From a virus: a stretch of 64,000 bases of DNA. Shown piece by piece: positions 4,803 through 25,453 of this stretch; the first letter of the stretch is position 1, and each line of letters starts with the position of its first letter. The translations under genes and the position numbers were made by a program. The notes under the pieces are model-generated. The model worked only from the letters and a program-made list of their open reading frames with translations. It ran no database searches and was not told where the DNA came from. Location of the stretch: the IMG/VR virus record IMGVR_UViG_3300044646_003076, one strand, 5' to 3'.

Positions 4803-5276
4803 ATGTCCACGATTAAGGTTCAAATTGTTGGTGGTGGTTCTGTTAAGAGTCTTATTGAAGCCGGCCCGGAATCTTGTAATCCCGAATTCGCCAAGAATAA
4901 TCATCTCACCTTTCATGCTTATTCTGATACAATGAAAGCCCGGATTCTTGAACAAATGATTAAATCTCCTGCAAGAATCGGGATTTCGTTTACTGATGAA
5001 CCATATAGGACTGGAGAATGGCATGAACCATTGATTGTTGATGCAATTTTCAATCGTTCACAATCACTCGTTAGACAAGAATTTCTAACCCTGACCGATT
5101 ATCAGACAGGAGAGCCGATCTATTTGGATGTATCACAAATTACGTTCATCCGGCAGATTGGGAGTGGTGATACTTACCCCAGACATACCAGCGTTGGTAC
5201 GCTGTCAAACAATCAGGTATTTCTTGTCAGGGAAGAAGCGGCATGGATCGCCCGGATTATAGCGAAAAAGATGTAA
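4803..5276 (+). CDS. two-part hypothetical protein; C-terminal part paralogous to 3240..3494
   Basis: ORF track; shared domain visible in DNA and protein. Confidence 0.75.
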   Translation: MSTIKVQIVGGGSVKSLIEAGPESCNPEFAKNNHLTFHAYSDTMKARILEQMIKSPARIGISFTDEPYRTGEWHEPLIVDAIFNRSQSLVRQEFLTLTDYQTGEPIYLDVSQITFIRQIGSGDTYPRHTSVGTLSNNQVFLVREEAAWIARIIAKKM

Positions 5277-5315
5277 AAACGAACCATCGATTGCTGATAC
5301 AAATTTCAATGTCAT

Positions 5316-5346
5316 CCTCCTCTAATCCAGGGGGTTTTTTATTGTC
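5316..5346. terminator. terminator between convergent genes (CCTCCT family copy 3)
   Basis: CCTCCT-ctaatcc-AGGGGG plus T-run, between 4803..5276(+) and 5361..5867(-). Confidence 0.8.
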
Positions 5347-5360
5347 TAAAAATGTAAAAA

Positions 5361-5867
5361 TCACCCATTCTCCATCTGATAAAGAATCTTTCTTAGACCA
5401 CGAGTGTTAATATAATTTTCCATGGCCTCTTTTAGAAATTGATTCAAAAACTCTGTAGAAGTAGGAACAGAATAACCTTTCAGTTTAACCGCCTTGTAGA
5501 GCATTTTAAAATCTTTTATTATCTTTTTGTCCAACAATAAGATTTCGTCTTTTTTAGCTTTCTCCCATGTAACATTATTAACAGAACAATCCATTCTGTC
5601 TTTACTTTTATACTTGATTCTTTTTGAATTAGAAATGTTGGGGAGAAATGCTTTTGCAACTAAGTTACCTACAAGAATACATCTTCTACGGTGAGTTTTA
5701 TCATAAATCCAGACAGCCTTATTTGTCTTTACTCTTCCATCTTTTAGTTTAATGAGAGTGTTATTTCTTTTCATTGACCATATTTCGCCAGAGTCAGAGA
5801 CGAAATACCCCTCAAAGTCCTCGTAACCGGAAATGCTATTTATTGCCGTCAAATTGGTTGGTATCAC
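5361..5867 (-). CDS. NUMOD4 plus degenerate HNH-like protein with helical C-terminal extension
   Basis: FEGYFVSDSGEIWS (NUMOD4-like); LVAKAFLPN...NNVTW matches the HNH_3 scaffold, but the His/Asn ligand positions are replaced. Confidence 0.7.
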   Translation of the reverse strand: MIPTNLTAINSISGYEDFEGYFVSDSGEIWSMKRNNTLIKLKDGRVKTNKAVWIYDKTHRRRCILVGNLVAKAFLPNISNSKRIKYKSKDRMDCSVNNVTWEKAKKDEILLLDKKIIKDFKMLYKAVKLKGYSVPTSTEFLNQFLKEAMENYINTRGLRKILYQMENG

Positions 5868-5954
5868 TGGGCTTATTTGGACAGAGATAATTATTTAAGC
5901 ATTCTGTATGAAAGTTAGTATTTTTAAGAGTTTTCTTGTCATAGTATAGGAATT

Positions 5955-6345
5955 GTGAATTGATAATGATTGTTATTGGTTAATAATTCGTATTGTTTAA
6001 TTATTGATAATATTTCGTATCGTTTATCGTTTGTTATTGTTATTCGTATTGTTTATTGTGTTTAAGACCCTTATTGATAAGAATTCGTATTGTTTATTGT
6101 TTATTATTGTAATTCGTATCATTTATTGTGTTTGATCTGGTTATTGTTGTTATTGTGTTTGAGACCCTTATTGATAATAATTCGTATCGTTTATTGTGTT
6201 TGATCTGGTTATTGTTGTTATTGTGTTTGAGACCCTTATTATTCTTAGTAATCTCGGGCTTCCTGTGATAACAACAGCAACCACCAATAACAACAGCAAC
6301 CACCAATAACAACAGCAACCACCAATAACCACAGCAAAAGAATAA
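5955..6345. repeat. non-coding simple-repeat block with T/G-rich to A/C-rich strand switch
   Basis: 51-bp exact duplication at 6122-6172 and 6190-6240; three 19-bp units ACAACAGCAACCACCAATA at 6271-6327; repeated TTATTGATAA. Confidence 0.9.
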
Positions 6346-6350
6346 CAAAC

Positions 6351-6373
6351 TTATTGATAATCATTCTCAATAA
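6351..6373. promoter_or_regulatory. Fur-box-like 11-1-11 palindrome
   Basis: TTATTGATAAT-C-ATTCTCAATAA has one mismatch; its core TGATAAT-N-ATTCTCA fits the 7-1-7 Fur consensus. Confidence 0.5.
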
Positions 6374-6402
6374 TACCATAAGAGATCCTAATACCCCAAC
6401 TC

Positions 6403-6431
6403 TTGACAACGATACTCCAACCGTCTATATT
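6403..6431 (+). promoter_or_regulatory. sigma70-type promoter
   Basis: TTGACA-N17-TATATT. Confidence 0.85.
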
Positions 6432-6456
6432 ACTTCTATACCCCAGAGGTTCTCCG

Positions 6457-6999
6457 ATGCCCACCACCAAAACAATCACTCTGTATAAGTTTGATGAGTT
6501 GAGCGAAGAAGCCCAGAATAATGCAATCTCCAAACTGTACAGTATAAATGTAGACCACGATTGGTGGGATCACATTTATGAAGATGCCAAAACTATCGGT
6601 CTTAAGATTGAAGAGTTTAATCTTGATCGTAAGAAAATCACCGGCACACTAAATGAATATCTGCTTGATTGTTGTCGTTCAATCCGACATAATCACGGTA
6701 AAGAATGCGAAACATTTAAGACTGCTCAACAATATCTACAAGAATATATTCAGCTATTTGTTAAATGGAAAGAAAATGATACCGAAGAAGACGTTTTTTG
6801 GAAACCCACTGATTGGTTATATGAATTCAAATATACTGACGAAGCCGATGAGATTACAAATGAATTCAGGAAAGCTCTACTCCAAGATTATCTTATCATG
6901 TTGGATAAAGAATATGAGTATTTGACTAGCGAAGAAGAAATTAAACAAGCAATAGAAGCTAATGAATATCTCTTCCATGAGGACGGAACACTGGAATAA
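6457..6999 (+). CDS. conserved phage hypothetical protein (LYKFDELSEEAQ...IEANEYLFxEDG family)
   Basis: ORF 6403..6999. The track's TTG start is the -35 box, so ATG 6457 is preferred. Confidence 0.8.
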   Translation: MPTTKTITLYKFDELSEEAQNNAISKLYSINVDHDWWDHIYEDAKTIGLKIEEFNLDRKKITGTLNEYLLDCCRSIRHNHGKECETFKTAQQYLQEYIQLFVKWKENDTEEDVFWKPTDWLYEFKYTDEADEITNEFRKALLQDYLIMLDKEYEYLTSEEEIKQAIEANEYLFHEDGTLE

Positions 7000-7004
7000 C
7001 ACCT

Positions 7005-7096
7005 GTTACAATAACTAACATTTGCTTCGGTATTATTATATCGGAGCATTTGTTATATCTTTACATTTAGTCTTAATAACATCTTATAGTGTCCGT
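7005..7096 (-). ncRNA. candidate ACGG small RNA copy H (driven by the left arm of a class-1 dyad)
   Basis: Minus strand: AACTGGAAC, 30 bp, TATAAT, 7 nt, ACGGAC. Its hairpin GCTCCGATATAATAATACCGAAGC is identical to the one in copy E at 14.25 kb. Confidence 0.5.
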
Positions 7097-7103
7097 AAGA
7101 GTT

Positions 7104-7197
7104 ATTATACATGATACAATGCACTAATGGTCCATGAGTGTTCCAGTTTATCAAGTGTCCACTGCTACCACCGCTCCTTCATAATATGGGTTATTGT
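7104..7197. promoter_or_regulatory. class-1 dyad with -10 boxes on both sides (bidirectional)
   Basis: Dyad at about 7138-7162; leftward TATAAT at 7104-7109; rightward TATTGT 29 bp downstream. Confidence 0.65.
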
Positions 7198-7439
7198 TAT
7201 TAAGTTCTCAAGAGATCACTCAAATGGAGACTGTTTTATTGTATTGAAATCTGAATAGCAATTCATTTAATAACATCTTTCTGGAGAATCTAATGGATGT
7301 TCCTTTCCTGTTCTTTTTTATTGTCTTTACAATCATGGGTTGGGCCATTTACTATAACAACCACAACGAATAAGACACTTCATAAACCGTCTACTAATAA
7401 CATCACACCTACAATAACAACGAATCATTCAAAACAACT

Positions 7440-7628
7440 ATGGAACTACTTACCAATCAAGTGAACGTGGTATTTCTTATTATTCAAACCGCTGTAGCCT
7501 TATATTTCACCTTCTTTCTTGATAATCTCACTCATAAGGCATTTAAGGAATTGGATGTAGACAAAAGGCGTCTTATTTCATGGGGAATGTTCTTTCTGAT
7601 GATCATCTCTCTTAAAACTCTTAACTGA
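7440..7628 (+). CDS. small two-TM membrane protein
   Basis: ORF track; hydrophobic; followed by a terminator. Confidence 0.6.
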   Translation: MELLTNQVNVVFLIIQTAVALYFTFFLDNLTHKAFKELDVDKRRLISWGMFFLMIISLKTLN

Positions 7629-7636
7629 ACTCAAAA

Positions 7637-7680
7637 GTGTTTCATATAGCTAGGACTAATAATCCTAGCTTTTTATTGTC
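7637..7680 (+). terminator. intrinsic terminator, repeated at 8216-8260
   Basis: GTGTTTCATATAGCTAGGACTAATAATCCTAGCTTTTTATTGTC occurs twice. Confidence 0.85.
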
Positions 7681-7860
7681 TAATAATCTAATAACATAAA
7701 TAATAACAGGTAATAACAATCCTCTTACACCTCCGGCCTCTGTAGTCACTGTCTCAAAGAGATCAAATTACACACCACTAAGGTTCTTAAAGATTAAAAA
7801 TCCTACTTCCAACCGAATAACAAAAACAGTAATAAAACTGATTATATTTTATTGCTTATA

Positions 7861-7936
7861 ATAATTCAAGTAGAAAGCGTTAGCGCAATCTACGATTTTT
7901 TAGTATCTGCGTGTACCAGTTTATCAAGTGTCCACT
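7861..7936 (+). repeat. about 76-bp repeat (hairpin plus class-1 dyad), identical at about 8265-8340
   Basis: ATAATTCAAGTAGAAAGCGTTAGCGCAATCTACG...GTGTACCAGTTTATCAAGTGTCCACT occurs twice, flanking ORF 7995..8168. Confidence 0.9.
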
Positions 7937-7994
7937 GCTACCACCGCTCCTTCATAATATGGGTTATTGTTATTAAGTCCTCAGGGAAACAACA

Positions 7995-8168
7995 ATGTCC
8001 CGCAAAGTCACTGTCACATTCACAACCAAAATGGTGTTAAATGTGGATGATGATGGTATCACTGATGAATATCTAATCAGGCACCTTACACGCTTCATGA
8101 ACAATCCAGCATACACCAAACTTATTGAGGATGAAAGGTACGACTTTAAGATTGAAGAGGAAGCGTAG
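7995..8168 (+). CDS. small protein, 57 aa (MSRKVTVTFTTKMVLNVDDD...), below ORF-track cut-off
   Basis: Hand-translated; fills a complete promoter-terminator cassette. Confidence 0.65.
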   Translation: MSRKVTVTFTTKMVLNVDDDGITDEYLIRHLTRFMNNPAYTKLIEDERYDFKIEEEA

Positions 8169-8403
8169 GTAATAATCTACAGATACGGCCACAAAACTGA
8201 CCAGATCCTTCCATAGTGTTTCATATAGCTAGGACTAATAATCCTAGCTTTTTATTGTCCAATAATAATTCAAGTAGAAAGCGTTAGCGCAATCTACGAT
8301 TTTTTAGTATCTGCGTGTACCAGTTTATCAAGTGTCCACTCATGGTTGCTTGATCTTTTAATACCTGTTATATTGTTATTGATCTAAAAGAATTCCACTC
8401 GCC

Positions 8404-8586
8404 ATGCTAACGATTTTTATCATTTACTTATACATGGTCACTTGCACATATTGGGCTCTTGTTGCATTACGAACTCCGAGTAATTTTTCCGAACGAGGTC
8501 TTATGATATGGGCTGCATTATGGTGGCCGGTATTGATTCCAAGTGTGTTAATTGCTAAGATCCTAAAGGAATTGGATTCTTTATGA
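8404..8586 (+). CDS. small two-TM membrane protein
   Basis: Hydrophobic, ALWWP motif; downstream of the class-1 promoter at 8315-8374. Confidence 0.65.
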   Translation: MLTIFIIYLYMVTCTYWALVALRTPSNFSERGLMIWAALWWPVLIPSVLIAKILKELDSL

Positions 8587-8664
8587 CACTCCATAAGCTG
8601 TCCACTCATCACCAATAATCCCAGCACTATCCGCTAACATGATTACTGTTATTGGATTTCTTCC

Positions 8665-8826
8665 ATGAAAATCAACTGGCTTAATCTTCTTCTTCTGGTA
8701 TCGGGAAGTTCCATTTCCCTGTCTATTCTTACTTTGTTGTTTGGTCCTTTTCCCTTTCTTGTTCCTCTTCTTCATGGAGCAGTTTGGGGATTGTTATCGG
8801 TTTGTTTTTTCCCCCTTACTAAGTGA
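8665..8826 (+). CDS. small membrane protein MKINWLNL paralog 1 (53 aa)
   Basis: Hand-translated: MKINWLNLLLLVSGSSISLSILTLLFGPFPFLVPLLHGAVWGLLSVCFFPLTK. Confidence 0.75.
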   Translation: MKINWLNLLLLVSGSSISLSILTLLFGPFPFLVPLLHGAVWGLLSVCFFPLTK

Positions 8827-8830
8827 TCCA

Positions 8831-8986
8831 ATGAAAATCAACTGGCTTAATCTTCTTATTTGTTTGATAGGAATTATTAGTAATATTATTCTTTTCACTT
8901 TGCTTTTCGGACCACTTCACCCTCTTTCTGCAATGATAGTTGGTATTGTATGGGGACTGTTTTTCCCAGGTATTGATAATGATTGA
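8831..8986 (+). CDS. small membrane protein MKINWLNL paralog 2 (51 aa)
   Basis: C-terminal part of track ORF 8741..8986; contains LFG...G.VWG. Confidence 0.75.
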   Translation: MKINWLNLLICLIGIISNIILFTLLFGPLHPLSAMIVGIVWGLFFPGIDND

Positions 8987-8990
8987 TCCA

Positions 8991-9158
8991 ATGAAAATCA
9001 ACTGGCTTAATCTCTTTTATTGGCTCCTTGTCAATCAGGTTTCATTAACAGTGTTTACTGTGTTCTTTGGTCATGTAGACATTTTGACAGCAATAATAAC
9101 TGGTACTTTCTGGGGTGTCGTATCAAATTACACTCTTACGATTTTTTATTACGAATGA
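8991..9158 (+). CDS. small membrane protein MKINWLNL paralog 3 (55 aa)
   Basis: C-terminal part of track ORF 8940..9158; contains FFG...GTFWG. Confidence 0.75.
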   Translation: MKINWLNLFYWLLVNQVSLTVFTVFFGHVDILTAIITGTFWGVVSNYTLTIFYYE

Positions 9159-9397
9159 TGTCACACCACAAGTACATTGTTGAAGTTAGGAACATTGATG
9201 GTTCCTTGGCAAGTTTATCAGAAGTGGAAAAGAAAAGACAAGAACATCCACATCTGTTTTCAAAAGAAGAATTTACAATATATGAACTTTGTTATTATGC
9301 GTCATTTGGACAGGGGCGAGATGTTCCAACTGGTCCTGTAGGTTTGCCCAAATTTATGCAAGATATTGGTATTTCTTATCGGCTTAAAACATGGTAA
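9155..9397 (+). CDS. hypothetical protein
   Basis: ATGA coupling at 9155 inside track ORF 9020..9397. Confidence 0.65.
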   Translation: MMSHHKYIVEVRNIDGSLASLSEVEKKRQEHPHLFSKEEFTIYELCYYASFGQGRDVPTGPVGLPKFMQDIGISYRLKTW

Positions 9398-9600
9398 CAA
9401 TAGAACCATTCTTATCAAGTTATGAAATCCATCTTAAACGTTGTTATACCGCAATAAGTTTACACACTCCAATAAAAGATCTAATGATATTAGCAAATGA
9501 CGAGGATCATTTTATTTGGGATTTGGTAGCAGAAAATCCAAACTGCCCACGTTATCTTAAAAGATACATTGCAATTAAAAAGTATCTAATGAAACTGTGA
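9391..9600 (+). CDS. small protein with a leucine-rich-repeat-variant-like motif
   Basis: TPIKDLMILANDED...VAENPNCP resembles the LRV repeat pattern. Confidence 0.55.
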   Translation: MVTIEPFLSSYEIHLKRCYTAISLHTPIKDLMILANDEDHFIWDLVAENPNCPRYLKRYIAIKKYLMKL

Positions 9601-9678
9601 CACTTCATAAGCTGTCCATCTAATTCCGATGTTCTCAACACCATCCACTAACATAATTACTGTTATTGGATTTCTTCC

Positions 9679-9987
9679 ATGAAAATCTATCTTGATGATG
9701 AGCGGTCAACACCAACAGGATGGATTCGTTGTTATTGGCCCGATGAGGTTATAACACTTCTACAGAATAACATCGTTGATATTATCTCACTGGATCACGA
9801 TCTTGGTGATGATAATAGAGGCACAGGAAACGATGTAATCTTATGGATTGAAGAACAAGTCTTTACCAATAACTATAAGCCGCCGATTATTCAGGTGCAT
9901 TCGGCTAACAGTTCTGCGAGATTGAAGATGGAGAATGGTATTAAATCCATTCAAAGACGAGTAGCGAGACTCTGTGCCACTTCATAA
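9679..9987 (+). CDS. cyclic-phosphate-processing receiver-like (cREC) domain protein
   Basis: KIYLDDER, ISLDHDLG...TG.DV..W and I.VHSAN motifs. Confidence 0.75.
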   Translation: MKIYLDDERSTPTGWIRCYWPDEVITLLQNNIVDIISLDHDLGDDNRGTGNDVILWIEEQVFTNNYKPPIIQVHSANSSARLKMENGIKSIQRRVARLCATS

Positions 9988-10057
9988 GCTGTCCACCGGA
10001 ACCACCGATTCCCAATAATCCGCTGTATTGTTATTAAGTCCCAGAAAAGGAATTTCA

Positions 10058-10306
10058 ATGTCTACTCTCACTCCCGAACAACTTTCCGAGCTTCTTGATG
10101 ATTATTGTGATCGTGTTATCAACAAAACCGATCCCGATACAATCGTTGGAGTTAATATCACCACAACGGTAACACATTCCGATGGTTCCATTACGGAATT
10201 TGTTGATATTCACTCCCCAAAAGAAGAGTCAAACCGGGTTATCAAGAAACCCGCTCCCCAAGAAAATAGGCCCTATCGTATCAACTGTTTTTCTGAAGAC
10301 AAATAA
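10058..10306 (+). CDS. hypothetical protein
   Basis: ATG at 10058 downstream of the class-1 promoter at 9974-10031. Confidence 0.65.
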   Translation: MSTLTPEQLSELLDDYCDRVINKTDPDTIVGVNITTTVTHSDGSITEFVDIHSPKEESNRVIKKPAPQENRPYRINCFSEDK

Positions 10307-10330
10307 TAACCTCAAATTTCTCCTCCTCCA

Positions 10331-10576
10331 ATGAGCACCCCAAATCAGGCAATTTTTGAGAATCATCTGAAGAATGCTTATGAGGATCTCTTTGCTAACA
10401 ATCCAGAGTATTCTTATGCTGCGAGTAGAACAACTCCGGTAGATCTTGCTCATAAAATGACAGAATCTCTCGTAACCGGACAAGGAAATAAAGATGGTGA
10501 TGGTATCAAAAGAGCATGTAAAGCGGTAGGAATTAAACACACTTATAAAGCAATCAAAGAATATCTTAACCAATAA
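10331..10576 (+). CDS. hypothetical protein
   Basis: ORF track; leader and start CTCxTCCAATGAGCACCCCAA shared with 10600. Confidence 0.75.
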   Translation: MSTPNQAIFENHLKNAYEDLFANNPEYSYAASRTTPVDLAHKMTESLVTGQGNKDGDGIKRACKAVGIKHTYKAIKEYLNQ

Positions 10577-10599
10577 CCATCCACATTTCTTCTCTTCCA

Positions 10600-10881
10600 A
10601 TGAGCACCCCAACTAAAACTGAATACATTCAGATGCCGGCTATTTCCACGCCAGCTATTGTAAATCATCTTCACGCTCTCCCTGAAGGTAAAGAAAAAAA
10701 TACACTTCGTTTGCAATATCTTATGCGCTATCTCTCAACTTATAGAGAAGCACCCGATATTAAGACATTGACGAATGATGTTCTTTATGCACTCGGGGTT
10801 GTAACCGATCCAGTTAATTTCACCGGAGCCATCGGACTTACTGAATATAAAAACTTTCTCAAAGAAAATCATCTTTCATAA
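10600..10881 (+). CDS. hypothetical protein
   Basis: ORF track. Confidence 0.7.
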   Translation: MSTPTKTEYIQMPAISTPAIVNHLHALPEGKEKNTLRLQYLMRYLSTYREAPDIKTLTNDVLYALGVVTDPVNFTGAIGLTEYKNFLKENHLS

Positions 10882-10904
10882 CAACCATACACATTTAACA
10901 ATAA

Positions 10905-10992
10905 ACACCAATAATATCTGCTGAGGTATAACAATACTTCAGCTTTTGTTATATTCTTATTTTTTGTCTTAAAAAATGAATAGGGTGTCCGT
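10905..10992 (-). ncRNA. candidate ACGG small RNA copy A
   Basis: Follows minus-strand TTGACG-N17-TAGAAT; starts ACGGAC; hairpin GCTGAAGTAT-TGTT-ATACCTCAGC. Confidence 0.5.
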
Positions 10993-10998
10993 ATCTGT

Positions 10999-11092
10999 AT
11001 TCTACTGATGGTGTTGGGATCCGTCAAGCATTCTTCCATAAGCAATTCTGATCGGTTAAGGGGTTGACCTAAGCGGTTCCAGGGTCTATATT
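10999..11092. promoter_or_regulatory. class-2 divergent promoter pair A
   Basis: Minus: TTGACG(11027-11022)-N17-TAGAAT. Plus: TTGACC(11064)-N17-TATATT. 36 bp between the -35 boxes. Confidence 0.85.
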
Positions 11093-11119
11093 ATGGAAGT
11101 TCATCAGACAAGCCTTCTT

Positions 11120-11488
11120 ATGTCCCGGAATCCCGCTCCCGAACTGAAGCACGACATTGCAGTTCATGAGGGGTTCGTAACCCTGAATAATAACGATGAT
11201 GGTTTCTATACACAATACTTCAATAATCGGGAAGAGGTTGAGCAATTCATCGCTGAGCTACGTGAGGCAATGGATAATGTATGGCCGGATGGTGTTAATC
11301 CTGAAGAACTGCAGGAAGAATGTTATCAAAAACGAGAGGAAGAGCGTCAAGAATACTTGCGCAATAATCCTCCTCGGCCACAAACACCAGAAGAGATTGA
11401 ACGTAATAAAAGGCTGATGACACTTCTTGATAAACTGGCTAATGATGATTCATATAGTGTTTGTTCTCATGTAGCGGAAAATCCCTGA
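11120..11488 (+). CDS. hypothetical acidic protein
   Basis: The track ATG at 11093 abuts the -10 box, so ATG 11120 is preferred. Confidence 0.75.
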   Translation: MSRNPAPELKHDIAVHEGFVTLNNNDDGFYTQYFNNREEVEQFIAELREAMDNVWPDGVNPEELQEECYQKREEERQEYLRNNPPRPQTPEEIERNKRLMTLLDKLANDDSYSVCSHVAENP

Positions 11489-11731
11489 TTCATCACACCA
11501 TAAGCACCTATCCACAACATAATACGTTAACACCCTCCTCTACCACTGCCTTTTCAGCGACATTATTGTGCTCAGGGAGTCCTTTATCCTTGAGCACATT
11601 TTTGTAGCTGAGATCCAAGATGATCTAAATAAATCTAAAAAACCTTTTATCGGGAATTTCGGTCTGAAGGTGCTATGGGTCATTCCGTCAAATAAGATCA
11701 CCGATAATTTCATTGTTATAATAAATGTTAT

Positions 11732-11789
11732 GTGCCAGTCCATAAGCTGTCCACCGATACTCTCATGTTCCCATAATCTGCTGTATTGT
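11732..11789 (+). promoter_or_regulatory. class-1 early promoter
   Basis: GTGCCAGTCCATAAGCTGTCCAC, 29 bp, TG-TATTGT. Confidence 0.7.
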
Positions 11790-11806
11790 TAAGAAGTCTT
11801 CAGAGA

Positions 11807-12151
11807 ATGTCTCTCATGGCTCTCAATTGGAAAGTTCCTGTTTCTTCTCTTCTGAGCCGTCTTCAGGATAATGACTATAAGATTTTCTCAGTCAATAATG
11901 GAGGCGAGACTATTCTTATTGACCAGAATCTTTCCAATGGAACTGCAAGAGCAAAGGCAGTAGAAGAGATTGTTTCTGTAGACGCATCTGCAATTGCTCT
12001 TATCAAGAATAAACAAACATTTGCGGTTTATATTGTATTAGGTAATGATCCACATGAGATTGCAGCCGATTATACTAATGATGAAGAATTGGAAAAAGTT
12101 ATTGATGAATTTGCTGATAGTTGGCAGGATAAGAAATGTCCTAGGATGTGA
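11807..12151 (+). CDS. hypothetical protein
   Basis: ORF 11786..12151; ATG 11807 or 11816; followed by a terminator. Confidence 0.75.
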   Translation: MSLMALNWKVPVSSLLSRLQDNDYKIFSVNNGGETILIDQNLSNGTARAKAVEEIVSVDASAIALIKNKQTFAVYIVLGNDPHEIAADYTNDEELEKVIDEFADSWQDKKCPRM

Positions 12152-12164
12152 AACAATGATGAAA

Positions 12165-12235
12165 TAATAACCCTAGAGTAATTCTGGGGTTTTATTGTTT
12201 ATAATTTGAGAAGAAAAATAAGATAGTCTGTCCGT
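12165..12235 (-). ncRNA. candidate ACGG small RNA copy B, overlapping terminator 12169-12198
   Basis: Minus-strand TTGACA-N16-TAGAAT, then ACGGACAGACTATC; no ATG before the hairpin. Confidence 0.45.
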
Positions 12236-12241
12236 ATCTCT

Positions 12242-12335
12242 ATTCTAGTCGTATTTTATCGGCTGTCAAGGTCTGAACTGATAAGCACTTCTGATCGGTT
12301 AAAGGCTTGACGTAGGCATCAATCCGGTCCATACT
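12242..12335. promoter_or_regulatory. class-2 divergent promoter pair B
   Basis: Minus: TTGACA-N16-TAGAAT. Plus: TTGACG-N17-CATACT. Central AACTGATAAG-CACTT-CTGATCGGTT. Confidence 0.85.
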
Positions 12336-12360
12336 ATGGAAGTCAACCGGAACCGATCCG

Positions 12361-12528
12361 ATGGCCCAAACCTTCCGCCCTGTCTGCGACATTCAGAGCA
12401 GAAATCCGTTCATGGTAGCGGTAATCAAAGATGATGAGAACCTTCTCATCGACGGGGAACCTTCAGTAATTCCAATGTGGTGGATCGCATCGGAATATGC
12501 GAAACTTTATGCTGGTGATGTGAAATGA
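12361..12528 (+). CDS. small protein, 55 aa (MAQTFRPVCDIQSRNP...), below ORF-track cut-off
   Basis: Hand-translated; first ATG after promoter B; ATGA coupling to 12525. Confidence 0.65.
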   Translation: MAQTFRPVCDIQSRNPFMVAVIKDDENLLIDGEPSVIPMWWIASEYAKLYAGDVK

Positions 12529-12734
12529 GCAATACTAAATTCCGAATTGTTAAATATAACGATTCCTTTGAAGAACTTCACATTCTTCAAGTCTGTCACT
12601 CGTATGAGGAAGCAGACCAAAGATTCCAATACTGGGATGAGAAATACCCAAACGATTATATTGAAATTCTTACTCCAGAAGACTGGAGATATTTTCAATT
12701 AGGTTCTAATCCCTCTGTTTTTGTTACATCATGA
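12525..12734 (+). CDS. hypothetical protein
   Basis: ORF track; coupled on both sides. Confidence 0.7.
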   Translation: MSNTKFRIVKYNDSFEELHILQVCHSYEEADQRFQYWDEKYPNDYIEILTPEDWRYFQLGSNPSVFVTS

Positions 12735-13093
12735 TTTTCCAAACAAGTTACACGATCACCGGGCATCTTCAGCGCCAATTAGCGGCAGTTGCTACTCCAA
12801 TCGTTGAGAATTGGTTCACAGATGTACTGATCCACGACACTGCTGCTACCGAAGATATGGAAATTGGCGAAGTTCGTTTATGGGCACTTCGCAAAACGGG
12901 TACATGGTTGTGTACTCTGAAGCAAGATATTTCTGAGCATAACGAATTCACTGGACTTGTTACTTCAATTATGAGGCATCCCGATGAATATAATGACGGA
13001 TATTATCATCTTTTTCTATTGCATAAGATCTCAGCAGATAAGCTGAAGATTACACCGACAACTTATGAAGAAATGTCCTATGTGAATGTGTGA
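12731..13093 (+). CDS. hypothetical protein
   Basis: ORF track; followed by hairpin GCCCCGG...CTGGGGT plus T-run. Confidence 0.7.
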   Translation: MIFQTSYTITGHLQRQLAAVATPIVENWFTDVLIHDTAATEDMEIGEVRLWALRKTGTWLCTLKQDISEHNEFTGLVTSIMRHPDEYNDGYYHLFLLHKISADKLKITPTTYEEMSYVNV

Positions 13094-13094
13094 G

Positions 13095-13169
13095 ATAACA
13101 AATGCCCCGGAGAAATCTGGGGTTTTTATTGTTTATACTTTGATAAGAAAAATAGAATAGGATCTCCGT
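13095..13169 (-). ncRNA. candidate ACGG small RNA copy C
   Basis: Minus-strand TTGACA-N17-TAGAAT, then ACGGAGATCCTATTC. Confidence 0.45.
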
Positions 13170-13175
13170 ATCTGT

Positions 13176-13270
13176 ATTCTAGTCATATTTTTATCGGTTG
13201 TCAAGGTCTGGAGTCATAACCATTTCTGATCGGTTGAAGGCTTGACGTATGCGGCTTCCGGGTCCATACT
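13176..13270. promoter_or_regulatory. class-2 divergent promoter pair C
   Basis: TTGACA-N17-TAGAAT (-) and TTGACG-N17-CATACT (+), 37 bp apart. Confidence 0.85.
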
Positions 13271-13300
13271 ATGGAAGTCAACCGCAAGGAAATTGATCCC

Positions 13301-13597
13301 ATGGACCAAGCCGATTTTCTCGCTATTGCCAAAGAAACCGCATCTTACGTGATAGAGCACGAGCGGAATAATGTTCTGAGCAACAAAAATAATCTTGATC
13401 TTTCAACATTCAGTTCCTTTCTTGATGGGATCAAAGGCCACCAATACTATAATGCCTTAGTGTTGAAATGTGATGGATGTGAGACGTACATTCTCATGCA
13501 GCTTAATACAGATTATCGTGAAATCGTGTGTAGAATGTCGGGTGATGAAGCCCGCGAATTCGTAGAGCATTTTCATGATATTGTCCTGAACGAATGA
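13301..13597 (+). CDS. hypothetical protein; C-terminal 26 codons shared with 14045..14209
   Basis: Track ORF 13271..13597; ATG 13301 preferred. Confidence 0.7.
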   Translation: MDQADFLAIAKETASYVIEHERNNVLSNKNNLDLSTFSSFLDGIKGHQYYNALVLKCDGCETYILMQLNTDYREIVCRMSGDEAREFVEHFHDIVLNE

Positions 13598-13599
13598 TC

Positions 13600-13688
13600 T
13601 GAATACAAACACATTTGCTAGGGTATAACAATACTCTAGCATTTGTTATAGTCTTATATTTTGTGGAAAAATAAGATAGTCTGTCCGT
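13600..13688 (-). ncRNA. candidate ACGG small RNA copy D
   Basis: ACGGACAGACTATCTTATTTTT...GCTAGAGTAT-TGTT-ATACCCTAGC. Confidence 0.5.
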
Positions 13689-13694
13689 ATCTCT

Positions 13695-13789
13695 ATTCTA
13701 CTGGTAATAATCCAGTTTGTCAAGGTCTGGAGTCATAAGCACTTCTGATCGGTTAAGGGCTTGACGTATGCGGCTTCCGGGCCCATACT
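13695..13789. promoter_or_regulatory. class-2 divergent promoter pair D
   Basis: TTGACA-N17-TAGAAT (-) and TTGACG-N17-CATACT (+), 37 bp apart. Confidence 0.85.
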
Positions 13790-13814
13790 AAGGAAGTCAA
13801 CCGGAACCGATCCG

Positions 13815-14012
13815 ATGAGCAACCTTTCCCCAACCGTTTATCAAGACAACGGATTCGCAGATAGGAAAGAATACCTCGATTCTTTGCGGGAAGAGTATGG
13901 CGGTTTGGTGGATGTTCTCACCAGCATTCTTCCAGCATCAGAAGATTTTGATGGCTTGGTTACGGAATTGGAAGATGCTCTGGCCAGCGGAGAATATGAC
14001 GAATTGATCTGA
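13815..14012 (+). CDS. small acidic phage hypothetical protein (YQDNGFADRKEYL...EDFDGLVTELED)
   Basis: Track ORF 13761..14012; its TTG start is the -35 box, so ATG 13815 is preferred. Confidence 0.75.
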   Translation: MSNLSPTVYQDNGFADRKEYLDSLREEYGGLVDVLTSILPASEDFDGLVTELEDALASGEYDELI

Positions 14013-14044
14013 TTTCTTACTTTTATTCCATCGCATTTCTTCCC

Positions 14045-14209
14045 ATGGACGCTTCCAACCTTTCCGCATCACAAGCTAGAGAAAAGATCATTGAATGGGG
14101 AGAAGAATTCACATTTGAGATTGTCTGTCGTGAAATCGTGTGTAGAATGTCGGGTGATGAAGCCCGCGAATTTGTGGAGGATTTTCATGATAATGTCCTG
14201 AACAATTGA
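14045..14209 (+). CDS. small chimeric protein, 54 aa, below ORF-track cut-off
   Basis: MDASNLSASQAREKIIEWGEEFTFEIVC-REIVCRMSGDEAREFVEDFHDNVLNN; tail nearly identical in DNA to 13518-13592. Confidence 0.65.
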   Translation: MDASNLSASQAREKIIEWGEEFTFEIVCREIVCRMSGDEAREFVEDFHDNVLNN

Positions 14210-14239
14210 GAAGATCAAATCTTGGTACAATTGAATAAC

Positions 14240-14328
14240 AAATACAAACACATTTGCTTCGGTATTATTATATCGGAGCATTTGTTATATTATTATACTT
14301 TCTTGTAAAAATAGAATAGTCTGTCCGT
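14240..14328 (-). ncRNA. candidate ACGG small RNA copy E
   Basis: ACGGACAGACTATTCTATTTTT... with the same hairpin as copy H. Confidence 0.5.
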
Positions 14329-14334
14329 ATCTCT

Positions 14335-14429
14335 ATTCTACTGGTAATAATCCAGTTTGTCAAGGTCTGGAGTCATAAGCACTTCTGATCGGTTAAGGGC
14401 TTGACGTTTGCCACGGCTGGGTCCATACT
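14335..14429. promoter_or_regulatory. class-2 divergent promoter pair E
   Basis: About 85 bp identical to pair D; plus arm TTGACG-N17-CATACT. Confidence 0.85.
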
Positions 14430-14459
14430 AAGTAAGTCAAACAACCCGGAAGGTTTCCG

Positions 14460-14810
14460 ATGAACTCGTCTCATCCGATCTTTAAGAGTCTTCCTTCTCT
14501 TAAAAGGGAGATTCGGGAACTTCTCATCTCAATCAAAAAAGATCAGGATTGGAAACAACTTCGCGCTGATTTTTCGGATGATGAGACACCACATATTCAG
14601 GTGACCATCGGTTGCACATTTAATGAAGGTACAATCTCATGGAATTATCAAACTGGAGACAATTCCTACACTGGTGGTGCTTATGACCACCCAGAATGGT
14701 TCATTGTTTATCTAACGAGTCGTGCAAATTGTTCTAACGAAGCGAAAGATATTATCAGTGAAATTGAAGGAAGAATTTATGAGTGCTTTAGCACTCTTAA
14801 CAATAACTAA
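14460..14810 (+). CDS. conserved phage hypothetical protein (IQVTIGC...WNYQTGDNSYTGGAY)
   Basis: ORF track. Confidence 0.8.
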   Translation: MNSSHPIFKSLPSLKREIRELLISIKKDQDWKQLRADFSDDETPHIQVTIGCTFNEGTISWNYQTGDNSYTGGAYDHPEWFIVYLTSRANCSNEAKDIISEIEGRIYECFSTLNNN

Positions 14811-14830
14811 TCCATTCATTCTGTGATTCC

Positions 14831-15097
14831 ATGTTCTCACTTTTCTTCTTCACTGGCAATGATCCCGAATTAGCTTTTGATATTAAAGATAGAATTGCAC
14901 GATATATTGATGAATACGTCAAAGAAGGCGAATTTGATACCTATGAAAGTGCAATTGATCGGATGAATAATATCGGATCCCGTTGGATATTTTATCCTAA
15001 TGCTTGTATTATTGAAGGCGAAAAAGTTATAGGGATTTATATGGAGGATGGAGTTAATTATACTCCGAAGAAAATTGAAGAGTTTGTGGAAGTATAA
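14831..15097 (+). CDS. hypothetical protein
   Basis: ORF track. Confidence 0.7.
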   Translation: MFSLFFFTGNDPELAFDIKDRIARYIDEYVKEGEFDTYESAIDRMNNIGSRWIFYPNACIIEGEKVIGIYMEDGVNYTPKKIEEFVEV

Positions 15098-15180
15098 CAA
15101 ACAAAAGGGTTGGGTATAACAATACCTGACCCGATCTTATAGTCTTATATTTTCTTGTAAAAATAGAGTAGGCTTCCCGT
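15095..15180 (-). ncRNA. candidate ACGG small RNA copy F
   Basis: ACGGGAAGCCTAC...GGGTCAGGTAT-TGTT-ATACCCAACCC followed by TTTTGTTTG. Confidence 0.5.
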
Positions 15181-15186
15181 ATCTGT

Positions 15187-15281
15187 ATTCTATTGGTGAT
15201 AATTCAGTTTGTCAAGATCTGGACTGATAAGCACTTCTGATCGGTTAAACGGTTGACGGTGGCCGATGGTGGTTGTATATT
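15187..15281. promoter_or_regulatory. class-2 divergent promoter pair F
   Basis: TTGACA-N17-TAGAAT (-) and TTGACG-N17-TATATT (+). Confidence 0.85.
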
Positions 15282-15322
15282 ATGGGTGTTCAAACATTCC
15301 TGGCAGGTTGCCGGCTCCACCG

Positions 15323-15487
15323 ATGCGATTCTCAACCCCACAGAAGATTTCCAAATTTTTCTATCTGGGATGGAATCCGAATTCTTATGATGAGATTTTC
15401 GGATTCTCTCTTTTGAATTTTTACGTCGGATTCTACTACGAATCTGGCTGGTGTGCGGGATTTCTTGACGCGAATGGGTGCCTCTGA
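15323..15487 (+). CDS. small aromatic-rich protein (54 aa)
   Basis: C-terminal part of track ORF 15266..15487. Confidence 0.5.
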   Translation: MRFSTPQKISKFFYLGWNPNSYDEIFGFSLLNFYVGFYYESGWCAGFLDANGCL

Positions 15488-15518
15488 AAAGTATTACAAT
15501 CCTCTCGCAGTCTTTCCC

Positions 15519-15884
15519 ATGAAATCACTCAAGATCCCCGTTGTTCTCACCACAACAAAAATAACTGAAGATCAATGGAAAGAGTTTATTTCTGATACAA
15601 TCGGTGACATTTCTGGTGAAATGGTTACAGTTGGGCCATGGCAAGTTCCGGTTAAGTTTGTGGCACTAGCAGCATCTTATACGTGGAAAAATGAAGGTTA
15701 TGGGGCTGTTATTGAATCTGTTACGCTATATGGAAAGCGCACGCTATGCAGAGTAAAAGAAAGCGACTATAAGTTGGAGGGTATCGTTAGCATTAAAGGT
15801 GTGAAGAGGAGAGCCTATACTTCTTCCATTATGTTTGAACTTCCCGATGGTCGGCTATATAATGTGGCAACAATTCAGGTATGA
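15519..15884 (+). CDS. hypothetical protein; stand-alone copy of the domain fused in 16163..16972
   Basis: MKSLKIPV...YNVATIQV closely matches 16607-16972. Confidence 0.8.
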   Translation: MKSLKIPVVLTTTKITEDQWKEFISDTIGDISGEMVTVGPWQVPVKFVALAASYTWKNEGYGAVIESVTLYGKRTLCRVKESDYKLEGIVSIKGVKRRAYTSSIMFELPDGRLYNVATIQV

Positions 15885-15911
15885 AATAGCAAACACAATA
15901 ATTATACAATG

Positions 15912-15945
15912 GCCCCGATTAACCTCCGGGGTTTTTTATTGTCTT
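15912..15945 (+). terminator. intrinsic terminator; sister copy at about 17000-17032
   Basis: GGCCCCG...CGGGG plus TTTTTTATTGTC. Confidence 0.8.
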
Positions 15946-16067
15946 CTAATCTATTTGTTATTTTCTATAACAGTCTGTAGCATTTGTTTGTATTATTATA
16001 TGCGTCTAATTTGTTTGTTATATTATTATACTTTATGAAAAAACAGTACAGGGCTCCCGTTGATTTA

Positions 16068-16162
16068 ATTATACAGCCGAGGCTGGCCATAGTCAAGGTC
16101 TGGAGTCATAAGCATTCCTGATCGGTTAAACGGTTGACGGTGGCCGATGGTGGCTGTATATT
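16068..16162. promoter_or_regulatory. class-2 divergent promoter pair G
   Basis: TTGACT-N17-TATAAT (-), predicted start ACGG at 16060; TTGACG-N17-TATATT (+). Confidence 0.85.
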
Positions 16163-23156: not shown

Positions 23157-23555
23157 ATGCCAGTAGAGCGGATAAGTCGTTCTTTTAAGGATATAAGTAT
23201 TTCATTTGATGTTAATCCATTAACTCGTGATCTTATCGTACTTAAAAATGAAACGGCTATTGTCCGCTCTATTCGCAATTTAATCTCAACAATAAAAGGA
23301 GAGATCCCCTATTCAGATAAAGGTAGTAATATTACTAATCTTTTATTTGAAAATATGAATTCCATAACTTCGTCGCTGATTGAAAGTGAAGTCACTGATA
23401 CCATTACTCGCTATGAGCCTAGAGTGTCTCTTATAAGCGTAGTTGTGAATCCCGATTACGATAATAACACTTATGATATTGTAATTACATATACGATCGT
23501 AGGAATAGATGTTCCACCACAACAACTAACTCTGGTTCTTAATACCGTCCGATAA
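23157..23555 (+). CDS. gp25: baseplate wedge subunit gp25
   Basis: FKDISISF.VNPLT.DL..LKNE.AI.RS..N and RYEPRV motifs; synteny. Confidence 0.92.
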   Translation: MPVERISRSFKDISISFDVNPLTRDLIVLKNETAIVRSIRNLISTIKGEIPYSDKGSNITNLLFENMNSITSSLIESEVTDTITRYEPRVSLISVVVNPDYDNNTYDIVITYTIVGIDVPPQQLTLVLNTVR

Positions 23556-25453
23556 TGGCCATAGTCAATCTCACTTCACTAGATTTCAATGAAATAAAAG
23601 CCTCTTTAAGAGATTATCTTAGAGCCAATTCAAACTTTAGTGATTATGATTTTGAGGGTTCTAACTTTTCTACTATTATTGATATTCTTGCCTATAATAC
23701 TTACATCTCCTCATACAATACCAACATGGTATCTAATGAGGTTTTTCTTGATTCGGCAACATTAAGAGAGAATGTTGTATCAAGAGCAAAAGAAATCGGT
23801 TATACTCCAAGATCCAGAACCGCTGCAAGAGCCAATATTAGTTTTACCGTTGACACCACTAATCTACCCATTAATCCAATCACACTGACTCTTAAAAAGG
23901 GAGTTGTGGTTACGAGTGATTCTTTTAATGGTGCTAGTTACACTTTTTCTATTCTTGAAGATATTATCGCACCAGTTATTAATAACATTGCAACCTTCAA
24001 TAACATTTCAGTTTATGAAGGATCTTTTATTGTTCAGAATTTTACCGTAGTTGATGATAATTCAAGATTTCGTCTTGATAACGAGGGAATTGATACTTCG
24101 CTTATTAATGTTCTTATTCGTGAAAGCAATCTAACAAACGTAACACAAAAATATAATCTTACTAAAAATCTTTTTAATGTAACGTCCACTTCTAAAGTTT
24201 TCTTTGTACAAGAAGTAGAAGACGAAAGATATGAACTTCTTTTTGGTGATGATATTTTTGGGAAGAAATTGGAGTCCAATACTCTTATTGATGTCTCTTA
24301 TATTATTACAAGTGGCGAAGATGGTAATGGCATCGGAACATTTAATTTCAATGGTAGAATTGTTGATAATAATGGTAGAATCGTAAATTCCGATATTTCT
24401 AAAATCACCACTAATACGCCGGCTTTTGGTGGTAAGGCTATTGAGTCTCTTTCTTCAATCAAAAAGTTTGCACCATTAAATTATTCTACACAACAAAGAG
24501 CCGTAACCGCCGCTGATTATGAGGCTATTATTCCTCAGATCTATCCGGAAGCAGAATCGGTATCGGCTTTTGGTGGCGAAACATTAACACCACCAAAGTA
24601 CGGAAAGGTTTATATTTCAATTAAGCCAATCAATGGACCATTCGTTTCTAATGGAGTAAAAGATAATATCAAGACACTACTTCGCAAATACTCTGTTGGT
24701 GGTATTGTTCCTGAGATTATTGATCTCAAATATCTTTACATTGAATTTGAGTCTGCTGTTTATTATAATTCCAATTTTTCAACATCACCTGAAACTCTTA
24801 AAACCACAATTACTAATAATATTGAATCTTACGCTAATTCTTCTGAATTGAATCGCTATGGTGCGAGATTCAAATATAGCAAGTTTCTTAAAATTATTGA
24901 CGAAAGCGATAGTGCAATAACATCAAATATTACAAAGATAACAATCCGCCGTGGAATGAAGGCGGAGATTAATAAATTCGCTTTCTATGAAATTTGTTTT
25001 GGTAATGCGATTCATATCAATAAGCAGACCGGTTATAATATCAAGTCTACCGCATTTAGAATCGCGGGTTCAAGTTATGATGTTTATTTTTCAGATAGAC
25101 CATCTAATGATGAAACTGGAACAATTTTCATCTTCCGTCTTGATGCATCTCAACAACCAGTTGTTATTAGAAACAACGTGGGAACGATAAATTACAAAAA
25201 AGGAGAGATTCTTCTTAACCCCATAAATATTACATCTACTCAAAAAACAGTAGGTTTTGATAATATTATTGATCTTAAAGTGACACCCAAATCAAACGAT
25301 GTTATTGGTCTACAAGATCTATATTTACAACTGATTACAAGTTCAAGTACAGTAAATATGCTTTCTGATACCATCTCTTCTGGTTATGATATTTCAGGTG
25401 TCAATTATGTTTCAACTTCTAGCTATTTTAACGGGGAATTAATCATCAAATAA
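23555..25453 (+). CDS. gp6: baseplate wedge subunit gp6
   Basis: LDFNEIKASL..YL...FSDYDFEGSN and RAVTAADY motifs. Confidence 0.95.
   Translation: MAIVNLTSLDFNEIKASLRDYLRANSNFSDYDFEGSNFSTIIDILAYNTYISSYNTNMVSNEVFLDSATLRENVVSRAKEIGYTPRSRTAARANISFTVDTTNLPINPITLTLKKGVVVTSDSFNGASYTFSILEDIIAPVINNIATFNNISVYEGSFIVQNFTVVDDNSRFRLDNEGIDTSLINVLIRESNLTNVTQKYNLTKNLFNVTSTSKVFFVQEVEDERYELLFGDDIFGKKLESNTLIDVSYIITSGEDGNGIGTFNFNGRIVDNNGRIVNSDISKITTNTPAFGGKAIESLSSIKKFAPLNYSTQQRAVTAADYEAIIPQIYPEAESVSAFGGETLTPPKYGKVYISIKPINGPFVSNGVKDNIKTLLRKYSVGGIVPEIIDLKYLYIEFESAVYYNSNFSTSPETLKTTITNNIESYANSSELNRYGARFKYSKFLKIIDESDSAITSNITKITIRRGMKAEINKFAFYEICFGNAIHINKQTGYNIKSTAFRIAGSSYDVYFSDRPSNDETGTIFIFRLDASQQPVVIRNNVGTINYKKGEILLNPINITSTQKTVGFDNIIDLKVTPKSNDVIGLQDLYLQLITSSSTVNMLSDTISSGYDISGVNYVSTSSYFNGELIIK

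Follow-up and report, generated by a model that had tools for sequence, protein, structure and literature searches.

Repeated early-gene junctions with a putative backward host-type promoter in a freshwater T4-like cyanophage

The DNA examined here is a 64,000-nucleotide (nt) stretch of a viral genome (IMG/VR record IMGVR_UViG_3300044646_003076), referred to at its full length as the window, and the element in question is an intergenic module that is repeated between small early genes and carries, besides the promoter of the next gene, a promoter sequence pointing the opposite way. Genes in the window specify baseplate, neck, sheath, terminase and portal proteins of the T4 type. The sheath protein shares 72% identity with its counterpart in Synechococcus phages B3 and B23, the nearest cultured relatives by this protein, and 62% with the one in S-SCSM1 (these phages are Kyanoviridae), and window DNA was present in many lake-water metagenome runs. 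The modules sit in a block of small plus-strand genes located 5' of the baseplate genes, and no Pfam families were matched by the small genes around them; this block is the hyperplastic early region of a freshwater T4-like cyanomyovirus. The proteins encoded upstream of the modules are acidic and soluble, 54-120 amino acids (aa) long (198 aa in front of the element at 7104), with net charges of 0 to -20 and no 19-residue segment with a mean Kyte-Doolittle value above 1.2. These upstream genes differ from module to module, and the predicted RNA unit is constant.

The junction modules

Repeat finding and alignment revealed seven copies of a module of about 170 nt at 10.9-16.2 kilobases (kb) and a partial copy at 7013-7111 (coordinates in Table 1). 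Read on the plus strand, the module begins with a terminator hairpin with a T-rich tail, followed by an AT-rich tract of about 45 nt (about 80% A+T) and by GTCCGTATCT(G/C)TATTCTA. A variable stretch of 16 or 17 nt, TGTCAAG and a conserved core (...CATAAGCACTTCTGATCGGTTAA...) come next, and the right end consists of TTGACG-N17-CATACT or TATATT and a short leader to the ATG of the next gene. Read on the minus strand, the same module contains TTGAC(A/G/T)-N16/17-TAGAAT (TATAAT in the last copy), and ACGG(A/G) starts 6 nt beyond the -10 box in six copies and 7 nt beyond it at 16068 and 7104. Every full copy presents two divergent promoters, placed back to back around a core fixed at 36-37 base pairs (bp). 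The core, which has GATC within TTCTGATCGGTTAA, could serve as an upstream element or as the site of a regulator.

In a promoter scan, the leftward sites matched 11 of 12 consensus positions in six copies and 10 of 12 in one, with a spacer of 16 or 17 nt in all seven, while the neighbouring plus-strand gene promoters scored below them (9-10 of 12) and have weak -10 boxes (CATACT, TATATT, TATTGT, CATAAT). Between 7000 and 16200, six sites reached at least 11 of 12 and all lay on the minus strand; in 300 Markov resamples such sites numbered 0.5 on average and at most 4. A sequence-only reading of this DNA had proposed seven near-consensus minus-strand sigma70 promoters and an eighth leftward -10 box, none with a conserved open reading frame (ORF) behind it. 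The seven promoter sequences are present as described, all eight leftward coordinates were exact, and the lack of a conserved ORF was borne out. Since the copies in the window are paralogous repeats, their number is not independent evidence, and the pattern in which they diverge was taken as the deciding test.

Conservation, separable halves and cassette exchange

Relatives were reached through the protein downstream of module 1 (84-90% identity) and their contigs were then searched with a profile of the module, which gave, once duplicates were removed, 24 distinct full modules in the window and in four related contigs taken together. In all 24 the leftward -35 box was TTGAC(A/G/T) (1.84 bits per position), the leftward -10 box was TAGAAT in 23 and TATAAT in one (1.96 bits per position), and the spacer was 17 nt long in 23 copies and 16 nt in one. 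The spacer sequence itself fell into nine unrelated classes, with 39% mean identity between classes and 0.77 bits per position. The rightward promoter showed a like signature, though its -10 box was weaker, at 1.45 bits per position. Because the boxes and their spacing are fixed and the sequence between them is free, this is the pattern expected from selection on a promoter, and the alignment indicates that the backward promoters are very probably real promoters under selection. The predicted start was less strict. The ACGG described in the sequence-only reading was found in 16 of the 24 copies, the others having ACAG (6), ATGG (1) or ACGA (1); thus an ACRG-like start persists in the relatives, and ACGG is not invariant.

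The same boxes were found in further relatives. A second IMG/VR pattern, built on the left unit of the module, recovered relatives where a first pattern, built on the core, had given no match. In contig L135, which is 70-77% identical to the window in shared genes and retains the layout, six full modules carry TTGACA, 17-nt spacing and a -10 box of TAGAAT, TAGTAT or TAGACT, so that conservation of the leftward -10 and -35 boxes, on which the earlier proposal had been staked, was found both here and in the 24-copy set. A close relative's 125-kb contig has six modules, all in a single orientation and confined to 6.3 kb, and a reversed control pattern had no match in that contig. A metagenome run with a relative of about 90% identity contained a loose end with ATTCTA, 17 different letters and TGTCAAG. 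Beyond these relatives, DNA searches of a phage collection, near and distant, with the array or one module gave no match, and a pattern scan of metagenomes gave chance matches only, none of the loci retrieved from it resembling the window by BLAST. The exact module pattern was not enriched in B3 or S-SCSM1, the latter having only some genes and a dyad-type promoter in common with the window.

The two halves of the module can be separated. In contig L129 (position 5990), the core and the rightward promoter stand alone directly after a stop codon, with neither terminator nor backward promoter, and the core therefore belongs to the rightward promoter. The left unit, comprising the terminator, the AT-rich tract, the ACGG start and the -10 box, was also found joined to a promoter of another type, which consists of an imperfect dyad, GTGCCAG-N8-9-TGTCCAC (GTGCCAGTnnATAAGcTGTCCAC), and a TATTGT/TATAAT-like -10 box 29-30 nt downstream, without a sigma70 -35 box. 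In all three such hybrids (window 7104, L129:8636 and L135:734) the sigma70 -35 box of the backward promoter is gone and its -10 box (TATAAT or TAGAAT) is kept at 28-31 nt from the dyad's left half-site, a placement that mirrors the rightward arrangement around it. The eighth element of the earlier proposal is one of these: its leftward -10 box at 7104, its ACGG start and its different promoter class were confirmed, and it has no sigma70 -35 box. The dyad motif is common to the window, S-SCSM1 and B3, being conserved across the clade, and the promoter might be of a middle type, with a dimeric factor acting on it. In every case the left unit lies 3' of a plus-strand terminator, and in 30 of 35 copies, with several hairpin types, 44-49 nt separate the end of the stem from the predicted +1. 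Since this distance is constant across hairpin and promoter types, the backward promoter travels with the terminator, whatever drives the next gene.

An unrelated module with a like layout was found in phage B3. Its repeated junction module contains a minus-strand extended -10 box (TGCTAGACT), conserved in four of five copies and aimed at the upstream terminator. It resembles the modules described here in repeating a conserved backward -10 box at the junctions, but its sequence is unrelated, its extended -10 box has no -35 box, and it is paired with a dyad-type rather than a sigma70-type promoter. The layout recurs in B3 and the sequence does not, which speaks for a function of transcribing as such, or of where it happens, rather than for a sequence-specific trans-acting RNA.

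The modules also mark the places where relatives differ. Blocks of the window are reordered or absent in contigs L129, L131 and L133 with boundaries at modules, and the joints in the metagenome run of the relative of about 90% identity likewise lie at modules. From these comparisons, the modules are the apparent counterpart of the promoter-early stem-loop (PeSL) cassette junctions and, like them, are swap points between relatives. PeSLs were described at cassette junctions of the T4-type phages RB49/phi1, T4/PST and KVP40/nt-1 (Arbiol et al. 2010, PMC2839356; Comeau et al. 2014, PMC4122927). The likeness extends to the composite itself (a stem-loop terminator, an AT-rich tract and a host-type early promoter), which recurs between small ORFan genes in a hyperplastic region, and to gain, loss and reordering of cassettes at the junctions. 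The window modules differ in their length of about 170 nt, in their conserved core and in their second, stronger, backward promoter. The words bidirectional and antisense are absent from both PeSL papers (PMC2839356, PMC4122927), and "opposite strand" is absent from PMC4122927; the earlier remark that the arrangement was not recognised as one described in cyanophages agrees with these papers and with a review of T4-like cyanophages, none of which describes the layout.

Table 1. Positions of the junction modules and dyad-type promoters (window coordinates unless a contig is named)
Feature	Positions	Strand	Details
Module 1	10920..11092		terminator 10920-10943; AT-rich tract; leftward -10 TAGAAT 11004-10999, -35 TTGACG 11027-11022, predicted +1 10992
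Module 1, rightward promoter	11064-11092		TTGACC-N17-TATATT
Module 2	12169..12335		terminator 12169-12191; leftward TTGACA-N16-TAGAAT 12269-12242, predicted +1 12235; rightward TTGACG-N17-CATACT 12307-12335
Module 3	13104..13270		terminator 13104-13123; leftward TTGACA-N17-TAGAAT 13204-13176, predicted +1 13169; rightward promoter 13242-13270
Module 4	13616..13789		terminator 13616-13641; leftward TTGACA-N17-TAGAAT 13723-13695, predicted +1 13688; rightward promoter 13761-13789
Module 5	14255..14429		terminator 14255-14280; leftward TTGACA-N17-TAGAAT 14363-14335, predicted +1 14328; rightward promoter 14401-14429
Module 6	15107..15281		terminator 15107-15132; leftward TTGACA-N17-TAGAAT 15215-15187, predicted +1 15180; rightward TTGACG-N17-TATATT 15253-15281
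Module 7 (extended form)	15913..16162		terminator about 15913-15931; extra AT-rich repeats with decayed hairpin
Module 7, promoters			leftward TTGACT-N17-TATAAT 16096-16068, predicted +1 16060 after 7-nt discriminator; rightward 16134-16162
Core between the two -35 boxes (module 1)	11028..11063	+	...CATAAGCA-TTCTGATCGGTTAA...
Equivalent cores (modules 2-7)	about 12270-12306, 13205-13241, 13724-13760, 14364-14400, 15216-15252, 16097-16133		
Eighth element	7023..7197		terminator 7023-7048; minus-strand TATAAT 7109-7104; predicted +1 ACGGAC 7096; without sigma70 -35
Eighth element, dyad (class-2) side			imperfect dyad 7139-7162; rightward -10 TATTGT 7192-7197; both -10 boxes about 41.5 bp from dyad centre
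Dyad-type promoters, window	7135-7210, 7908-7983, 8312-8387, 9969-10044, 11727-11802		variants 8584, 9598
Dyad-type promoters, relatives	L127:1400-1465; L128:21963, 24201		

Possible roles of the backward promoter

The sequence-only reading had noted compensatory stems in several of the hairpins that the predicted RNAs run into and had seen in the array a repeated system of small RNAs. Across 14 distinct hairpins, we counted 18 G-U pairs in the plus sense and none in the minus sense; stem positions that deviate from Watson-Crick pairing are always paired in the plus-strand RNA and become A-C mismatches in the backward RNA. The mean folding free energy was -12.1 kcal/mol on the plus strand compared to -8.5 kcal/mol on the minus strand. 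RNAalifold found a plus-strand hairpin of six pairs, four of them with compensatory changes, and neither a consensus pair nor covariation on the minus strand of the same stretch. Because the G-U pairs are asymmetric and the covariation is confined to the plus sense, the compensatory stems are terminators of the forward genes. Compared to shuffled sequences, the predicted backward RNAs gave z-scores of -0.8 to -3.1 and folded more weakly than the plus strand in six of six cases, and an Rfam search gave no match for them. A second AU-rich hairpin between the terminator and the +1 lacked consistent covariation, and a tiny 5' hairpin with a U-run was seen in the module at 16068 only. With the hairpin selected on the opposite strand, no minus-strand consensus structure and no Rfam match, the proposed small-RNA system was not upheld, and the alignments lean against a structured trans-acting small RNA as the product.

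Two other readings of the tract were tried and rejected. A plus-strand inverted repeat, TAGAATAG/CTATTCTA around GTCCGTATCT, has a poorly conserved left arm, and a plus-strand late promoter in the AAAAATAGAAT tract was discarded on the grounds that the modules have AAAAATA and not (C/A)TAAATA (a TATAAATA-like box). Late boxes of the form CTAAATA or ATAAATA were found 20-45 nt 5' of virion genes at 36893, 50024, 54659, 57549, 61805, 62402 and 63099; an additional CTAAATA lies at 11625, within the early region and behind a terminator.

Overall, these results point, tentatively and somewhat short of probably, to a variant of the PeSL into which a backward promoter is built; the short non-coding RNA made from it would act in cis, at the boundary between cassettes. 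The right half combines the upstream core with the host-type early promoter driving the next cassette, and the left half combines the previous cassette's terminator and the AT-rich tract with a near-consensus host-type promoter predicted to fire back towards that terminator. The product would be a short non-coding transcript of about 75-85 nt if stopped behind the hairpin, and longer with read-through. As to the mechanism, we infer that polymerase binding and firing head-on against the upstream unit, together with an RNA complementary to its read-through transcript, would sharpen 3'-end formation, and that backward firing, as interference or a roadblock, would insulate mobile cassettes from their neighbours. 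Alternatively, the cis action might set the stability of the 3' end of the upstream mRNA, as lambda OOP RNA does for cII.

Several points weigh against this cis-acting reading. Termination of the minus-strand RNA at the hairpin is doubtful given the weakened stems and the poor U tract, and the length of the RNA hinges on it. There was no RNA run among the sequencing runs containing window sequence, and no transcript has been seen. The first 22 nt of the predicted RNA hold about 1.4 bits per position, ATTTTT being invariant from +17 to +22. In L135, a symmetric module (5211-5450) has the left unit and core, next to them TTGACA-N17-TAAAAT, and then the ACGG...CTATTTTT leader in an inverted copy; this inverted promoter and leader face a UvrD-family helicase gene (5448-7022). 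The conserved leader and its inverted copy are a hint that the RNA sequence itself may matter. In addition, shared ancestry and possible homogenisation by recombination may cause the counts to overstate independence. Insulation, antisense control and supercoiling coupling are alike compatible with the data.

Among the alternatives, coupling at the DNA level would make the RNA a by-product: the backward promoter would recruit polymerase, and divergent firing would feed negative supercoiling or a local concentration of polymerase to the weaker rightward promoter. The fixed back-to-back arrangement of every full copy and the contrast between weak rightward and near-consensus leftward -10 boxes speak for it. 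However, the left unit is kept beside other promoter classes at a constant distance to the terminator, the rightward promoter and core also exist alone, and the initial transcribed sequence is conserved. According to the twin-domain model, very short transcripts generate little supercoiling, which also counts against such coupling, and we regard it as unlikely. The sequence-only reading's main proposal amounts to a family of small RNAs, 70-100 nt long and acting in trans or by binding protein, which seven or eight loci would encode; each would have ACGGAC...CUAUUCUAUUUUU as its 5' seed and a hairpin at its 3' end. The conserved first 22 nt, the constant length to the hairpin and the inverted copy in L135 fit such a family. 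Yet the hairpins are selected in the plus sense only, the minus strand has no consensus structure, covariation or Rfam family and only modest fold z-scores, the B3 lineage has a like layout with unrelated sequence, and the only obvious complementary targets are the read-through transcripts of the modules themselves. The balance makes a trans-acting family distinctly unlikely. Nothing was found in support of the related proposal that the RNAs serve as decoys for RNA polymerase or another protein.

It is also conceivable that the boxes do not act as promoters, the TAGAAT and TTGACA blocks being recombination anchors for cassette exchange or sites of another DNA-binding protein. Breakpoints between relatives do lie in or at modules, and PeSLs are known recombination substrates (PMC2839356). 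Such anchors would have no need for sigma70 hexamers or 17-nt spacing, whereas the sites match 10-11 of 12 consensus positions, the spacer is optimal in 23 of 24 copies, and the lone variant -10 box, TATAAT, is nearer consensus; we see only a slight chance of this explanation. The T4 origins oriF and oriG pair a promoter with a DNA-unwinding element downstream, where the RNA remains as a primer. The backward promoter and its AT-rich tract resemble this layout, so that the leftward RNA might stay hybridised there and prime DNA synthesis, as the sequence-only reading had suggested. Since at least seven copies lie within 6 kb in one orientation and in one hyperplastic region, unlike known origin use, and since the cumulative GC skew makes no turn at the array, R-loop origins are very improbable. 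The same reading had offered type I toxin-antitoxin pairs of the txpA/RatA type, with an antisense RNA overlapping the 3' end of the toxin gene. The geometry fits, in that the promoter of a small RNA faces a small gene from its 3' side. This explanation fails because the upstream proteins are acidic and soluble; they have no hydrophobic helix of the kind expected of a membrane toxin and no Pfam match, and the genes vary between modules where the RNA unit does not. We find it barely credible.

Known counterparts, neighbouring features and implications

Other phages have single backward transcripts with which the modules can be compared. Lambda OOP and P22 sar are short non-coding RNAs from a host-type promoter that converge on the 3' end of an early phage gene; OOP is encoded once, ends at an efficient terminator of its own and has cII as its defined target. 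The predicted backward transcript of the modules would likewise run towards or into the end of the upstream gene. In contrast to OOP, the modules repeat at every junction, beside unrelated genes, with a hairpin optimised for the other strand. In the T4-like cyanophage S-PM2, CfrI is a single antisense RNA of about 225 nt opposite psbA and a homing endonuclease gene (Millard et al. 2010, as cited in PMC2984593). CfrI is likewise an antisense non-coding RNA of a T4-like cyanophage but not a repeated junction element.

Within the early region, three tandem paralogous small ORFs lie at 8651-9158, their starts having a 46-nt repeat in common. The 3' ends of two adjacent cassette genes (13516-13597 and 14128-14209) are 93% identical over 82 nt and the remainder of the genes differs, which suggests a crossover within coding sequence. 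Just 5' of the cassette region, positions 5964-6337 hold dense tandem repeats with periods of 68-97 nt and TTCGTAT-type motifs, and these continue into 3.7 copies of a 19-nt unit. Elsewhere in the window, two giant ORFs of 3813 aa (25455-36896) and 2486 aa (38509-45969) lie among the baseplate genes, next to gp6-like (23555-25453) and gp8-like (36917-38503) genes. The large terminase has a LAGLIDADG domain between its ATPase and nuclease parts (51652-54645 and 57579-59702 cover terminase and portal), and the portal protein has a match to an intein-splicing domain under the Pfam threshold (25.4 versus 35.8 bits). These matches make inteins in the packaging genes possible.

The early transcription of T4-like cyanophages is poorly understood, and these phages lack the proteins through which T4 reprograms its host's polymerase (PMC2984593). 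For the model cyanophage S-PM2, the absence of dense PeSLs was reported (PMC4503421), whereas a dense PeSL-like array does exist in the lake cyanophage lineage described here. Where the junctions of the PeSL papers (PMC2839356, PMC4122927) are described with a forward promoter only, here a strong promoter directed against the genes appears to be kept by selection at each junction. If it is transcribed, the backward promoter would offer a testable way into the question of how mobile cassettes are insulated from one another or tuned. A bolder possibility, to which we give a small but real chance, is that in large freshwater cyanomyoviruses (the lineages of the window and of B3/B23) each early cassette is a sense/antisense unit whose backward RNA has a specific role. 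That role could be to tag read-through RNA for cleavage, to shield mRNA 3' ends from infection-induced host RNase E, or to prime copies of excised cassette circles. If so, the modules would add a level, so far unrecognised, to the control of early genes and the mobility of cassettes in T4-like phages.

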